A stretch of DNA of 64,000 bases from Escherichia coli (GTDB taxonomy: Bacteria; Pseudomonadota; Gammaproteobacteria; Enterobacterales; Enterobacteriaceae), in assembly GCF_044647545.1 (NCBI RefSeq), contig NZ_CP172818.1. The stretch is one strand, 5' to 3'. Shown here in pieces: positions 4,074 through 31,641 of the stretch. The stretch's first letter is position 1. Each line of letters begins with the position of its first letter. Below the pieces are notes generated by a model. The model searched no databases, had not been told where the DNA came from, and saw nothing but the letters and a program-made list of their open reading frames with translations. The position numbers and the translations under genes were made by a program.

Positions 4074-4116
4074 AAAGCAACCTCAATAAGAAAAACTGCC
4101 GCGAAGGATAGCAGGA

Positions 4117-4485
4117 ATAAAAAAAGGGAGCACTGTATTCACAGTGCTCCCGGTTCGTTTCGCAGCATTCCAGCTACTTTTGTTGCTCCCTGCTCATCCT
4201 TGACAACTTTTCCTCTGGCCTTGCGGCCAATCGTTCATCCTGAACTATTGCTTCCTGCTCACACCACCCCGATGTGATACTTCATCCTGAAGTGTCCCTG
4301 GCCTTCCTGACCCACCGAATCATCCTGACCGGTTCTCATTCTCCATCCTGGAGGTGTCCTTTAACGCGTCCTGCGTCATCCTCTTCGCTTCATCCAGAAG
4401 CCTTTCCCTGAAACACCATCCTGGTGTGTCCTTCAGAAGTGTCATCATCCTGATGTTCACTTCGTTGTCTGACTCCCTGTCGACG
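4117..4485 (-). ncRNA. csrB: CsrB sRNA (CsrA-sequestering RNA)
   Basis: About 369 nt whose reverse complement contains many CAGGAUG / AGGA motifs (seen as repeated 'catcctg' on the + strand) and ends in a GC-rich hairpin plus U-tail (rc of 4119-4151); located between yqcC and syd as in K-12. Confidence 0.9.
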
Positions 4486-6267: not shown

Positions 6268-7632
6268 TTGATTACACATATTAGCCCGCTTGGCTCCATG
6301 GATATGTTGTCGCAGCTGGAAGTGGATATGCTTAAACGCACCGCCAGCAGCGACCTCTATCAACTGTTTCGCAACTGTTCACTTGCCGTACTGAACTCCG
6401 GTAGTTTGACCGATAACAGCAAAGAATTGCTGTCTCGTTTTGAAAATTTCGATATTAACGTCCTGCGCCGTGAACGCGGCGTAAAGCTGGAACTGATTAA
6501 TCCCCCGGAAGAGGCTTTTGTCGATGGGCGAATTATTCGCGCTTTGCAGGCCAACTTGTTCGCGGTTCTGCGTGACATTCTCTTCGTTTACGGGCAAATC
6601 CATAACACCGTTCGTTTTCCCAATCTGAATCTCGACAACTCCGTCCACATCACTAACCTGGTCTTTTCCATCTTGCGTAACGCTCGCGCGCTGCATGTTG
6701 GTGAAGCGCCAAATATGGTGGTCTGCTGGGGCGGGCACTCAATTAACGAAAACGAGTATTTGTATGCCCGTCGCGTCGGGAATCAGCTGGGCCTGCGTGA
6801 GCTGAATATCTGCACCGGCTGTGGTCCGGGAGCGATGGAAGCGCCGATGAAAGGTGCTGCGGTCGGACACGCGCAGCAGCGTTACAAAGACAGTCGCTTT
6901 ATTGGTATGACAGAGCCGTCGATTATCGCCGCTGAACCGCCTAACCCGCTGGTCAACGAATTGATCATCATGCCAGATATCGAAAAACGTCTGGAAGCGT
7001 TTGTCCGTATCGCTCACGGTATCATTATCTTCCCTGGCGGTGTGGGTACAGCAGAAGAGTTGCTGTATTTGCTGGGAATTTTAATGAACCCGGCCAACAA
7101 AGATCAGGTTTTACCATTGATCCTCACCGGCCCGAAAGAGAGCGCCGACTACTTCCGCGTACTGGACGAGTTTGTCGTGCATACGCTGGGTGAAAACGCG
7201 CGCCGCCATTACCGCATCATCATTGATGACGCCGCTGAAGTCGCTCGTCAGATGAAAAAATCGATGCCGCTGGTGAAAGAAAATCGCCGCGACACAGGCG
7301 ATGCCTACAGCTTTAACTGGTCAATGCGCATTGCGCCAGATTTGCAAATGCCGTTTGAGCCGTCTCACGAGAATATGGCTAATCTGAAGCTTTACCCGGA
7401 TCAACCCGTTGAAGTGCTGGCTGCCGACCTGCGCCGTGCGTTCTCCGGTATTGTGGCGGGTAACGTAAAAGAAGTCGGTATTCGCGCCATTGAAGAGTTT
7501 GGTCCTTATAAAATCAACGGCGATAAAGAGATTATGCGTCGTATGGATGACCTGCTACAGGGTTTTGTTGCCCAGCATCGTATGAAGTTGCCAGGCTCAG
7601 CCTACATCCCTTGCTACGAAATCTGCACGTAA
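6268..7632 (+). CDS. ppnN: Nucleotide 5'-monophosphate nucleosidase, LOG family
   Basis: 454-aa ORF recognised as PpnN (YgdH); contains the LOG-family motif region [10 protein letters not shown]. Confidence 0.85.
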
Positions 7633-8187
7633 TCTCCCTCCCCCGGTGACGTTTGTTGCCGGGTTTTCTCGTTTTTGGTCACATACCCATCAATTTATTT
7701 CATTTGTTATATGAATGTTTCTTACCCCCCTCACGCGATAAATATCATTACAGTTAATATGTCATACAATTTATGTTGTAACGCAAACGTTTCCCTATTT
7801 TCATAAACCACATTTTATCGCTATGAAAAAGAAATTATCGCCATGATTAACTAAAAGTATTGATTTTTTCAGTTCAACCTACATATATTGCGCGCCCCGG
7901 AAGAAGTCAGATGTCGTTTAATGGGCAAATATTGCCCTTAAATTCTCTTTTACTTTTGATTTACAGAGTAAAGCGTTGGGATAATCTATCTTCCAAGTAG
8001 ATTATTGTATTTGGGATCAAGATCACTGATAGATACATAACTTGTGTGTATCTTTCCGCCCTCAAATTATTACGGCGGTAAATGATTAAGCCATCGCCGA
8101 TAGACAGATTTCATTTTTACGGTCAGGCACCTTCCCGGGCTGAACTGGCTAAAAGCTGAATTATTTGCATTCCTCCAGGAGAAATAG

Positions 8188-9477
8188 ATGGAAACGACTC
8201 AAACCAGCACGATTGCGTCGAAAGACTCTCGTAGTGCCTGGCGCAAGACAGACACCATGTGGATGCTGGGCCTTTACGGCACGGCAATCGGCGCGGGCGT
8301 GCTGTTCCTGCCAATCAACGCCGGTGTTGGCGGTATGATCCCGCTGATCATCATGGCTATCCTTGCGTTCCCGATGACATTTTTTGCTCACCGCGGCCTG
8401 ACTCGCTTCGTACTGTCTGGTAAAAACCCAGGCGAAGACATCACCGAGGTTGTAGAAGAACACTTTGGTATTGGCGCAGGTAAACTGATTACCCTGCTCT
8501 ACTTCTTCGCTATCTACCCGATCCTGCTGGTTTATAGCGTGGCAATCACCAATACAGTTGAAAGCTTCATGTCTCACCAGCTGGGTATGACACCACCGCC
8601 GCGTGCGATTCTGTCGCTGATCCTGATCGTGGGTATGATGACCATCGTTCGCTTCGGTGAGCAGATGATCGTTAAAGCGATGAGTATTCTGGTATTCCCG
8701 TTTGTTGGCGTACTGATGCTGCTGGCTCTGTACCTGATCCCGCAGTGGAACGGCGCAGCACTGGAAACGCTGTCTCTGGACACTGCATCTGCAACCGGAA
8801 ACGGTCTGTGGATGACCCTGTGGCTGGCAATTCCGGTAATGGTGTTCTCGTTCAACCACTCTCCGATCATCTCTTCTTTCGCCGTTGCGAAGCGTGAAGA
8901 GTACGGCGATATGGCAGAACAGAAATGCTCGAAGATCCTGGCATTCGCACACATCATGATGGTGCTGACCGTAATGTTCTTCGTATTCAGCTGCGTACTG
9001 AGCCTGACTCCGGCAGACCTGGCTGCGGCTAAAGAGCAGAACATCTCGATTCTGTCTTACCTGGCTAACCACTTTAACGCACCGGTTATCGCGTGGATGG
9101 CTCCGATTATCGCGATTATCGCTATCACCAAATCCTTCCTCGGCCACTACCTGGGCGCACGTGAAGGCTTCAACGGTATGGTGATTAAATCTCTGCGTGG
9201 TAAAGGTAAGTCTATCGAAATCAACAAGCTGAACCGTATCACTGCGCTGTTCATGCTGGTAACGACCTGGATTGTTGCCACCCTGAACCCGAGCATCCTG
9301 GGTATGATTGAAACCCTGGGCGGCCCAATCATCGCGATGATCCTGTTCCTGATGCCGATGTACGCAATTCAGAAAGTACCGGCAATGCGTAAGTACAGCG
9401 GTCACATCAGCAACGTATTCGTTGTCGTGATGGGTCTGATTGCAATCTCCGCAATCTTCTACTCTCTGTTCAGCTAA
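8188..9477 (+). CDS. sdaC: Serine:H+ symporter
   Basis: 429-aa polytopic membrane ORF recognised as SdaC; GGAG Shine-Dalgarno upstream of the ATG. Confidence 0.92.
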
Positions 9478-27232: not shown

Positions 27233-27309
<77 letters not shown>

Positions 27310-27342
27310 ATTAAAATTTGATGAAGTAAAGCAGTACGGTGA

Positions 27343-27419
<77 letters not shown>

Positions 27420-27452
27420 ATCAAAATTTAATGAAGTAAAGTAGTACGGTGA

Positions 27453-27529
<77 letters not shown>

Positions 27530-30500
27530 ATTATCTGAATACCCAAGTTTTCACAATCGTTTTTTTTATTTAAATCTTTCCTGAATCACAAAGTTTTTTA
27601 TCTCCCTTCCTCGAATAATCAATTACACTAAATTATCCCTTTCTGTATACTCAATCCCCGATATCCTTGTAATGATATTTTCATTACATCTAAATTCCCA
27701 ACGTTCAACTAAACACATCCACCCCAAAACATTTCTTCTTCAATCACCTAATAAACCCCTCATCCACAACTCCCCCCATTGATGATCAACACATCCATCA
27801 TCACAAATATTTATACTAATAAATCTCCACTCAAAAAAACAAAAAACAATGATGAATCGACTCATAAAATATCTTCAATTATACAAATGAATCCACTTTT
27901 CACAACTAATCTTTTTTCAAAACTAAAACTCAACATCAAAACAATAACCTTCCCATTTTTCCAATATCGTACCAACACAATACGTTTACCTTTAACCCAC
28001 CATCACTCACCCATACCATTTTCATCCATGATACACCGATATTTTCATCCCGAAATAATCCAATGATAAATTCCCAACCATTTGAATTAATCCCAACCAT
28101 TATTACAATAATACTATTCCTCCACGAAATCAATATTTCTATCCCCTCCCGAATCTCGATATTATTTTCACACCAACACAATAACTTCCCCTATAACAAT
28201 CTTCCCAACCCAAATAATCTCTAATCATATTCTATTTAACAATCCCACATTATTCTTAATAATAAATTAAAATTATTCTCTCTACAACCCAAAACACTCT
28301 AAAACACTACCAAACATTTTTATACACACTCACTTCAAAAACCACCCCAAAAATACTTACTGTATTTATATTTTAAATTATGAATTTCTTTAACCATCAC
28401 CCCTGATGATAAACCGAAACACACATAAATTTTTTCAATTCAAATCAACCCACCCATCACCAACAACCAAACAACATCCACACATATCTAAACTAAATTA
28501 TCCCCTCACTTTACGATTTCAACAATAAATCACAACTTACCAACATATATACTAAAAAATCAAATAATTACCCATTTTTTTCAACACATTCCCAATTTCC
28601 CTCTCACACTTTTGAAATAAAATAACAACATCTCTTCCCACATCCAATCCTGTACCCTCCTACCTAACAAAAAACGAATCCTACTCAAAATCCGATTTTC
28701 CAATAAACCGACTTACCAACACCAATAAAAACAACTTTTCCCTACAAATTTATACTTTAATTAAAACGAATCAAAATATCAATAACTCTCTACTTAATTC
28801 TTACATAAAATTTTAATAATATATCTTATTCATTTTTATTCTCCCTGATTAATATTTTTAATTACACTCACAAACCGTAACCCCATATATAATTTTTCTC
28901 ACCCACCATTCAAGAATACCCTCCCCCTCCGTTCCATAACATCCCCCCATAACCATTTCCTTCATGAATTAACACTTAAAATTCATCAAAAGATAACCAA
29001 TACAAACAATCTACCAAAAAAACAACATCACTCCTACATCAATTCAATATTTTATTCAATACTAATTGAATTAACAATATTCTTTAATGATTTACATCCC
29101 AATCTAACAATAAACAATTATATTCATACTATGGATTTACAAAACTATACGATATCTTCTAACTTATGATTAAAATTACTCATTAAATCATAAGATCTTA
29201 TCAAATTAAATTCATATCATTATACTACTACTTTTTCTTTTTTTATTTTAACCGATGTAACTACTCATTAAAAACAAAATCACTATGATTTCATCTAACA
29301 TAACAAATTATCCTTAACCACATTTTATATTCTTCTTCCACCAACTTCCTCGTTATGAGATTACATAATAACACCATCTCTTTTATCTTAAACAAATCCC
29401 ATTATACTACCCCCCTCATTTTTTATAATCAAAACTTCAAATATTCCCTATTTTTTACATCAAAAACATTAAACATTAAAAACAAATATTATCACACGAT
29501 CAATAATCTATTCTTTTCAATAATACATCACATCTATATTATCCATTCATTTTATCTTTTATATTTTATAAACCATTTACTACCATTCAATATTCACATT
29601 CAAACAGTACCTAAAATCTTTCCAAGTTTTCTTAATCCCTACACACTTCTTATCAAATCCATATCTAAATAAAATGTAATACATCTTTTACACCAAATCT
29701 CCCCAAAATCCCATTTACAATATTTCCTTCAAACAGTATTAAAAACATCCATCACATATCCATTATTATCCATATCCACCAACATGACTTTATACCGATA
29801 ATATTTATATTTTATCAATTTAATATAATTCCCCACTCTTTTTATTCTCCTCAATCAACCCATATCGATTTTAAACTAAAGATACCAATTATCCAGATTT
29901 AATATTCTCTTTACCACAATCCTTAACATCTCTCTCTTCACTCTATTTATCAACGTATATCCCTATACTATCCTCATACTTCACTACAATACTCTTCACC
30001 ACTCATCAGTTAAATTTAAAATACAACAACACAAAGTAATAAATAAAAAATACCACTTCGACACACACCTATTCAACTTTCTTCCACCAAACCCAAACTA
30101 ATAAATTGAATCAACCCATAAATCCCATCTTCACCCCATAACAAACACGAATCCATTCATAAATCATAAACAAACACATACTACAAATAAAAAAAATCCA
30201 ACTCCTACCCCCAATAATGATTAACACCCCAAATAACAATCTTTATACTTTTCTTTTACATACATCGATACACCACCCACCACCAACATACTAATCATCA
30301 TTTCTTTCCATTTTCCCCCAAACCACAATACCATTCTCTACACCCATAAAATCATCCATAATACTCTCCCCCAATCACACCTAAACCGACGTAAACAAAA
30401 ATCACCAGATTTTAACCAAAAAACTCACTCCAACTCATAAAAAATAACCGAACAACCGAATATATCATCCAATGACATGAAAATTAAAAACCCAATAAAA

Positions 30501-31641
30501 GAATGATCAACCAAACCATCATCACAATCATTAATAACACAACCTATAAAAACTAATATCTAACTAAATTAACGTCTTTTTAACACCATAATAACCCACA
30601 ACAATTCCTCTAAACCTTATTTAACTGATCCCAAATATTTATCGACATTTACACACCAATAATCTCTTTTAAATAAAATTCTCCCAGACACCCATAAAAC
30701 AATAAAGAAAAACATATTTATCCTCTTTTTTTTAATAACCAAGAATTTACCAAACAAACATAATAACAAACAAACAAACCAAAACAATAAACAATATTTT
30801 TATTATGAAACCAAAATAATTAATCCATATCATCATCTAAACATCCACCTACATCACACATACAACAACAAGAAATAAACCTCATCTAAAAAAAATCCAC
30901 TTTCTTTTATTTCATATAAATTTATATATAAAATTAATACTACGAATAAAATATATTTTCTCTAAATACATATTTAAAACAACAATACTCAATTTATGAA
31001 TTAAAATTCTTTCTCAAAAATCATAATCACAATATTCTTTTTTTTATACATAAAACAAAAAAAATAATCATCATAACTTAAATTAAATAATCTCACTTAT
31101 AAAACCGATAACTTTATTTTTTAATAATAAAAAGCATAACAATGAATTCAATTATTTAAAACAAATAAAATTCATCAAATTAAACTAAATTATAATAACA
31201 CAATATTTACAATTTATCAAAAAAAATTATTATTTTACCAAAAAATAAAACAAAAAACAAAAATTTAATTTTTCAAATACACAAACAACAACAAAACAAC
31301 AAATACATAATAATATAACGGGTGTTTTTTTGTTTCTTGTCTCCCATAAAAGAGCCAGCCATCTCAGACGACATTCCATATTTTTTTTTAACCACCCACC
31401 CAGAAATATAACCTCTCCATTCACACTTACACAATTATTTCATACTTATATCAATACTCCCAAAAAAAACAACACTCAAATAATAATACTCAAACAATAA
31501 CATACAAAATAACAACAAACAAACGAATTTTTAATTAAAAACTTTATTTTCAACGACATTCAAAATCCACATCATCACAAAACATCTAATATTCATAAAT
31601 TTATCTATCAACGAAATATAAATTCATAATAAATAAAAACA
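27530..31641. other. About 4.1-kb non-native, apparently non-coding block with extreme G-depletion on the + strand (A/C/T-rich, AT-rich); origin and function unknown
   Basis: By eye, most 60-nt lines contain 0-3 G. No ORF longer than about 105 codons in any frame, and those present translate to low-complexity peptides. No obvious long direct or inverted repeats, no integrase, no duplication of the tRNA 3' end. Fills the whole gap between metV and the amiC stop, where K-12 has only tens of bp (from memory). Confidence 0.85.

Follow-up and report, generated by a model that had tools for sequence, protein, structure and literature searches.

The ppnN–sdaC intergenic region of Escherichia coli: a known multi-input control region with a probable class II CRP-dependent main promoter

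Introduction

The sdaCB operon of Escherichia coli, responsible for L-serine uptake and deamination, is preceded by a 555-bp interval (positions 7633–8187) in which RefSeq annotates no feature, either in K-12 MG1655 or in one strain that is 100% identical. The interval lies within a 64,000-nucleotide stretch of E. coli DNA, referred to here as the window. A first-pass annotation, made from the sequence without database searches, had described it as a long AT-rich leader upstream of sdaC, carrying A/T tracts and TGT/ACA half-sites consistent with a complex regulated promoter. This raises the question of how much of the interval is leader, which of its parts control sdaCB, and which of these are shared with related species.

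The 555 bp are not a single leader, but consist of the terminator of the preceding gene ppnN, a regulatory stretch of approximately 390 bp and a 5′ UTR of 127 nt. Very likely, the interval as a whole controls sdaCB at both the transcriptional and the post-transcriptional level, with a proximal promoter, P1, as its main promoter. Control of sdaCB by CRP, Lrp, YieP and ArcZ has already been published, and the region is an ordinary multi-input catabolic promoter that was known before and contains no new element. Sequence comparison makes two small additions to this picture: the presumed CRP-dependent core is universal, and the YieP sites are confined to Escherichia.

Position, composition and constraint of the interval

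The gene order in this part of the E. coli chromosome is csrB, syd, queF, ppnN (6268–7632), the gap, sdaC (8188–9477), sdaB and xni. The reading frame of ppnN, also called ygdH, runs to 7632 and sdaC begins with an ATG at 8188, which confirms the boundaries given for the non-coding stretch. The CsrB sRNA gene at 4116–4475 on the minus strand is a full-length Rfam match (382.9 bits), and K-12 has csrB at the equivalent position. The gap is 100% identical to that of strain FDAARGOS_497 and 97.8% identical to that of K-12, and of 5,426 complete E. coli genomes 5,425 contain it, all except one of them with at least 95% identity. Its length ranges from 436 to 648 bp across all 76 Enterobacteriaceae species compared. 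Alignment to NC_000913.3, which shows 11 substitutions and one 1-bp indel, gives the K-12 coordinate as window position − 7632 + 2927673 for window positions above 7637; this conversion was applied to all published coordinates.

The AT-richness of the gap is real, with a GC content of 37.5% against 50.1% for the window, which corresponds to the 6.8th percentile among 555-bp windows. The A/T tracts and TGT/ACA motifs that had been offered as evidence for regulation are not distinguishable from composition. The gap contains 19 TGT and ACA trinucleotides, compared with 15.6 ± 2.9 in dinucleotide shuffles, 17% of which reach 19, and 13 A/T runs of at least 7 nt, compared with 10.6 ± 1.9, a value of 13 being reached by 16% of shuffles. 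A few of these motifs do fall within real sites, one example being TGTCATACA in YieP site 2.

Divergence is unevenly distributed over the gap. Of the 12 differences between the window and K-12, 11 lie upstream of 7842 and one, a G for A, in the left half-site of the CRP site, which leaves a single difference in the 346 nt of 7842–8187. For comparison, divergence is 2–6% at third codon positions in the flanking genes and 5.3% in 7673–7859. Conservation over the gap peaks at 7997–8082 when 76 Enterobacteriaceae species are aligned, and within Escherichia the spacer 7897–8008 evolves at a near-neutral rate. The CRP site, the −10 element and the Shine-Dalgarno sequence are the universal parts of the region, and the YieP sites and the distal promoter the Escherichia-specific ones.

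A different kind of anomaly was observed elsewhere in the window. Downstream of three tRNA-Met genes (27233–27529), the 4.1 kb of 27540–31640 contain only 2–3% G on the plus strand, with a GC content falling to 17%, and no ORF of at least 120 amino acids. The first 2.6 kb (to 30140) align at 75.6% identity (blastn without low-complexity filter) to an intact gene block of normal E. coli encoding a phosphoglycerate dehydrogenase, KpsF/GutQ, MalY/PatB and a PTS EIIC component; 760 bases are deleted in this alignment, 401 of which are G. Strain FDAARGOS_497 has these genes intact. The segment looks like a corrupted G-dropout copy, an artefact or alteration rather than natural DNA.

The terminator of ppnN

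The first 40 bp of the gap belong to the upstream gene. A terminator scan identified an intrinsic terminator of ppnN at 7642–7672 on the plus strand, comprising a stem at 7642–7663 followed by a T-rich tail. The stem is GC-rich, with 9 bp that include 6 GC pairs, and folds with −14.9 kcal/mol (z = −1.8). A Term-seq 3′ end of ygdH/ppnN at K-12 position 2927709 corresponds to window position 7668 (Adams 2021), so that a GC-rich hairpin, a U tract and a mapped 3′ end coincide here, as in Rho-independent terminators. A read-through transcript from ppnN to sdaC is also listed in the SMRT-Cappable-seq table. Transcription of ppnN stops at 7642–7672, with some read-through into the operon.

The proximal promoter P1 and its CRP site

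The CRP site (8009–8030) has the core TGGGA-TCAAGA-TCACT at 8012–8027, centred on 8019.5. With 8 of 10 matches to TGTGA-N6-TCACA, this core ranks among the top 6 of approximately 64,000 window positions and is the sole strong CRP-like match in the gap; its half-sites are nearly invariant across the 76 species. Occupancy in vivo is known from the literature: in enterotoxigenic E. coli (ETEC) H10407, CRP ChIP-seq reported AGTGATCTTGATCTCA at sdaC (Haycocks 2015), and this sequence is the other strand of 8012–8027 with one difference. For CRP regulation of sdaC, Frendorf 2024 cites Hollands et al. 2007, a study in which the dependence of sdaC on CRP was tested.

Downstream of the CRP site, the P1 core (8046–8058, plus strand) is a conserved block that contains the −10 hexamer TATCTT (8049–8054) and the start of a GC-rich discriminator. 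Of 78 Enterobacteriaceae sequences, 62 share the 12-mer TGTATCTTTCCG of this core unchanged. Variants of the −10 element, such as TACATT in Kluyvera, retain the TAnnnT pattern, with T at −12, A at −11 and T at −7. The distance of the CRP site and the position of TATCTT predicted a start at about 8061 before the SMRT-Cappable-seq value was found. That dataset gives K-12 position 2928102, which is window position 8061, as the start of both b2796 and b2796|b2797|b2798; the transcripts of sdaC, sdaCB and sdaCB-xni thus share this start on the plus strand. TATCTT occupies −12 to −7 relative to it, and the CRP centre lies 41.5 bp upstream, at −41.5. The start at 8061 comes from one dataset, the Mendoza-Vargas 2009 and Cappable-seq 2016 supplements containing no entries for the sdaC locus, and transcription begins there at a C, where a purine would be more usual. 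The first-pass annotation had suggested start-site mapping and would have given up its reading for a start immediately upstream of sdaC with no regulatory occupancy above it; the published start lies 127 nt before sdaC and has occupancy upstream, so that the reading stands in this respect.

The spacing suggests that P1 is a class II CRP-dependent promoter in the classification of Busby and Ebright, as restated in Frendorf 2024. cAMP-CRP bound at 8012–8027 would replace a −35 element and recruit RNA polymerase to P1, where the polymerase would use the −10 hexamer and start at 8061. Through cAMP-CRP, P1 would couple serine catabolism to the carbon status of the cell. A tidier map of the region emerges, in which the main promoter is defined by the 8061 start, by CRP binding at −41.5 to a site validated by ChIP, and by a −10 element that hardly varies.

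An imperfect 10-nt inverted repeat, GATAGATACA/TGTATCTTTC, at 8028–8056 covers the P1 spacer and the −10 element. In other genera it reads GATACAT-N13-ATGTATC, and it overlaps the second motif of the CRP ChIP-seq table. As a structural hairpin it was rejected, since changes in the left arm occur without compensation in the conserved right arm, and it could instead be an operator for some other factor. Two further repeats were set aside: a CCGCC/GGCGG hairpin at 8056–8078, which straddles the start site, and the inverted repeat AATCTA/TAGATT at 7982–8002, for which an apparent compensation (ATCCAC/GTGGAT), judged by eye, is present in some genera, not all.

A distal promoter and the YieP and Lrp sites

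A σ70-like promoter, P2, is predicted farther upstream at 7860–7889 on the plus strand. It consists of TTGATT, an 18-nt spacer and TATATT (7884–7889), followed by a GC-rich discriminator, and scores 9/12 in a consensus scan. Its predicted start at about 7896 implies a leader of approximately 291 nt. P2 coincides with published promoter-up mutations: Table S1 of Heyde 2021 places the PsdaC* insertions, which were selected in cAMP-deficient cells, at 2927924 (+A) and 2927928 (+ATT), and coordinate conversion puts both on the P2 TATATT. Frendorf 2024 describes PsdaC* as −10 insertions beside a GC-rich discriminator and states that the sdaC promoter has so far had no experimental verification; for the annotated σ70 start it cites Huerta and Collado-Vides 2003, an analysis of promoter signals. 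The "sdaC promoter" of this literature, the site of the up-mutations, is distinct from P1, whose start lies 165 bp farther downstream.

A third promoter-like match (TTGATT, 18-nt spacer, GATAAT, with TG upstream) falls within the weakly constrained spacer, at 7956–7985, and no start is assigned to it among the SMRT-Cappable-seq entries listed.

Upstream of P2, the AT-rich and fast-evolving stretch carries the two YieP sites. In Freddolino 2021, an orphan occupancy peak was detected ahead of sdaC and YieP was pulled down; two sites were examined by gel shift, ChIP-exo and reporter assays, and both were mutated (PMC8282354). Site 1 (ATTTGTTATATGAAT, 7702–7716) is an exact match to the site mutated in that study, and site 2 (ATATGTCATACAATT, 7757–7771) is the exact published site, located in the IPOD-HR and ChIP-exo occupancy peak; the window therefore contains both experimentally defined 15-mers of this GntR-family regulator unchanged. 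Site 1 has 0–1 mismatches in Escherichia sequences and at least 3 in every other genus. Site 2 is exact in 5 of 5 Escherichia sequences, and elsewhere has 2 mismatches in one sequence and 4–6 in the remainder. YieP control of sdaC is accordingly a recent addition confined to Escherichia.

Approximately 296 and 349 bp separate the YieP sites from the P1 start downstream, too great a distance for classical activation of P1 to be plausible. YieP may act on P2, or may displace a repressor such as Lrp. YieP is bound in glucose-rich medium, where sdaC is highly expressed, and IPOD-HR RNA-seq shows sdaC to be approximately 20-fold higher in rich defined medium with glucose (PMC8282354). Because cAMP-CRP should be low in glucose, a CRP-independent route consisting of P2 with YieP may dominate under some conditions.

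An Lrp site is listed in EcoCyc, approximately 200 bp downstream of the YieP peak (PMC8282354), which places an approximate Lrp zone at 7950–8008, in the poorly constrained spacer between P2 and P1. The motif scan that had been proposed for both regulators was informative for CRP, with its one strong match in the gap, and uninformative for Lrp: the best Lrp consensus match in the region, 12/15 at 7995–8009, is reached by 82% of shuffles. Lrp and YieP would modulate expression from upstream.

If P2 were the only real promoter, as drawn by Frendorf et al. 2024, sdaC would have a single long leader and the conserved CRP block would exert its effect from inside the transcribed region. The expression-raising insertions on its −10 element and the 9/12 score are in line with this, as are the YieP sites approximately 130 and 185 bp upstream of P2 and the high level of sdaC in glucose-rich medium. 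P2 also diverges by only 0–2.7% within Escherichia, compared with 6–11% at sdaC third codon positions. However, no start near the distal promoter (K-12 ~2927936) appears among the SMRT-Cappable-seq entries listed beside 2928102, and relative to a P2 start CRP would be located at about +123, which is at odds with the activation described in the literature. Moreover, the −35 and −10 elements of P2 are poorly conserved beyond Escherichia and Salmonella, whereas the P1 core is universal; Frendorf et al. report no verified sdaC promoter, the reference they cite for the annotated start being a promoter-signal analysis; and the mutations are gain-of-function changes, arising under selection in cya cells, in which P1 is unable to fire. 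A single distal promoter is therefore an improbable explanation of the region.

With P1 retained as the main promoter, P2 is probably not mere noise, judging from its low divergence within Escherichia and from the high sdaC expression in glucose-rich medium. P2 is constrained within Escherichia and is the target of the up-mutations selected in cAMP-deficient cells. The PsdaC* insertions would strengthen the CRP-independent P2 while P1 is dead in the cya mutant, and the silence of P1 would explain why selection falls 165 bp above the main start. Treating P1 and P2 as separate thus provides a simple reason for the position of the up-mutations. A tentative extension, held with rather low confidence, is that sdaCB has two promoters with separate logic: an ancient, universal and CRP-dependent P1, and a distal, CRP-independent P2. 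With the same reserve, P2 and the YieP sites may have arisen jointly, and in Escherichia alone, with P2 under purifying selection there. The P2 leader of approximately 291 nt would cross the CRP and Lrp operators of P1, and bound CRP or Lrp may consequently act as a roadblock.

The 5′ UTR and ArcZ

Transcription from P1 gives a 5′ UTR of 127 nt (8061–8187, plus strand), delimited by the mapped start and the ATG. Only this part of the gap lies downstream of the mapped start, and the earlier term "long leader" is too wide. The UTR folds no more stably than its shuffles (z = +0.39), and RNAalifold on the UTR of 76 species yields −0.84 kcal/mol with 3 pairs, that is, essentially no consensus structure. 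At E ≤ 1, no Rfam match was found in the gap of E. coli or of four other genera, and Adams 2021 lists no Term-seq 3′ end within the sdaC UTR. The UTR thus has neither the RNA family or covarying structure of a riboswitch or structured leader, nor the conserved ORF with a premature termination site of a uORF attenuator.

A possible 5′-proximal hairpin is predicted at 8073–8099 on the plus strand, with the arms CGGCGGU/AUCGCCG and a 13-nt A/U-rich loop. Equivalent hairpins with different stem sequences are predicted in most species, and Salmonella lacks one at this position. Compared with arm shuffles, the hairpin reaches p < 0.05 in 15 of 70 species and p < 0.2 in 45 of 70, the window itself giving p = 0.14. 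As a model, the recurrent hairpin with its A-rich loop may be an Hfq landing pad for control by ArcZ.

The Shine-Dalgarno region (8175–8186, plus strand), with GGAG at 8178–8181, coincides with the published ArcZ site at −13 to −2 from the ATG. Pairing of ArcZ with the sdaC ribosome-binding site was reported for Salmonella at −13 to −2, according to a review citing Papenfort 2009, and the window carries the same target sequence as Salmonella. Nucleotides 1–10 of processed ArcZ pair with −13 to −2 through 10 bp and one bulge (−12.8 kcal/mol), an energy that 34.5% of shuffled targets equal. The duplex energy of full-length ArcZ was discarded as meaningless, because it ignores the ArcZ terminator hairpin. 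Hfq-dependent ArcZ would mask the Shine-Dalgarno sequence at the end of the UTR and thereby repress translation.

Small open reading frames and a motif of other genera

The gap contains several small reading frames in E. coli. A 25-codon uORF starting with ATG (8082–8159, plus strand) lies in the UTR and is probably not functional: it is present in 6 of 78 sequences and restricted to Escherichia, has ATT at the start position in other genera and, by eye, has no good Shine-Dalgarno sequence. A 29-codon ORF at 7911–8000 on the plus strand, which includes the palindrome GGGCAAATATTGCCC (7924–7938), is probably not a gene. It is likewise present in 6 of 78 sequences; in one Escherichia relative it is reduced to 2 codons, and elsewhere it is missing. 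A 46-codon ORF at 7860 occurs only in Escherichia. None of the five candidate ORFs of the gap has a Pfam match, and the rows listed from the sORF table of Stringer 2021 contain no relevant match.

Other genera share a different element. The motif [AG]TG NTA GCC TTC GCG CCN occurs 245–273 nt upstream of the sdaC ATG in 45 of the 76 species outside Escherichia; the loci are L010 (from position 2236), L021, L048, L019 and 41 others, and the equivalent segment of the window is 7911–7945. In 30 of the 45 species it opens a 10-codon ORF, encoding for example MVAFAPVNSL, MIAFAPQISG or VIAFAPINLR, each followed by a stop codon. Translation is favored by the alternation of the start between ATG and GTG and by the common 10-codon length in clades with different C-termini. 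Conversely, the third codon positions are invariant, while the first positions of codons 2 and 7 vary, and invariant third positions favor a nucleic-acid motif. The coding reading of the mini-ORF is therefore doubtful. In Escherichia, the flanks of the motif survive and its core is replaced by the palindrome GGGCAAATATTGCCC; the overwritten motif or mini-ORF may be a lost regulatory element. The library that was searched contained no paper linking sdaC to a uORF. TGGTAGCCTTCGCGC, present in other genera, was dismissed on visual inspection as a σ54 promoter because its −12 element lacks TTGC.

In Citrobacter youngae (L021), the segment 5237–5300 downstream of sdaB matches naRNA4, a REP-like nucleoid-associated RNA in Rfam, below threshold (43.1 bits against a gathering score of 59.5).

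These data also bear on the idea that sdaC is controlled in cis by its leader RNA, for instance as a riboswitch, as an attenuator or through a uORF. The length of the gap in all 76 species speaks in its favor, as do the weak 5′ hairpin with its A-rich loop in most species, the 25- and 29-codon ORFs, and the conserved motif or mini-ORF of other genera. On the other hand, the UTR has neither an Rfam match nor a stable or conserved fold nor a listed Term-seq 3′ end, both E. coli ORFs are Escherichia-restricted, one of them being truncated in a relative, and the conserved sequence is accounted for by the CRP site and the −10 element at the DNA level. A cis-acting RNA is consequently very unlikely.

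Even less probable, to the point of being close to negligible, is an independent gene, sRNA or small protein hidden in the gap. The long spacer, its blank RefSeq annotation and several promoter-like hexamers would be compatible with such a gene, but the sole terminator-like site is that of ppnN, and a promoter scan yields 2 sites where 2.2 are expected. The SMRT-Cappable-seq entries listed contain no extra starts, and the candidate ORFs lack conservation as well as Pfam matches. The earlier statement that no ORF or sRNA could be supported agrees with the Rfam and Pfam searches and with the lack of ORF conservation. The interval is thus best described as the control region of sdaCB, with P1 as its main promoter.

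Comparison with known systems

The architecture of P1 resembles that of class II CRP promoters such as galP1, where CRP is located at −41.5. The sdaC site likewise has its 8/10 core at −41.5, no recognizable −35 element, a −10 element at −12 to −7 and published occupancy in vivo. Unlike in these promoters, transcription of sdaC starts at a C, and a second, weaker CRP-like motif, listed in the ChIP-seq table (8027–8042), overlaps the P1 spacer.

The region is the same locus as the published sdaCB region (Frendorf 2024, Freddolino 2021, Haycocks 2015, and Papenfort 2009 via a review), and the window contains the YieP sites, the CRP ChIP site, the PsdaC* insertion positions and the ArcZ target at the exact coordinates. 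In the literature consulted, the 2928102 start and CRP at −41.5 are not connected, and the distal promoter is taken as "the" promoter. As in the tandem-promoter catabolic operon gal, with its promoters P1 and P2, the candidate promoters of sdaC appear to differ in their regulatory logic, and mutations improving the CRP-independent promoter were selected in the absence of cAMP. In contrast to gal P1 and P2, which are 5 bp apart, the two sdaC promoters are separated by approximately 165 bp, and the distal one is putative in the wild type.
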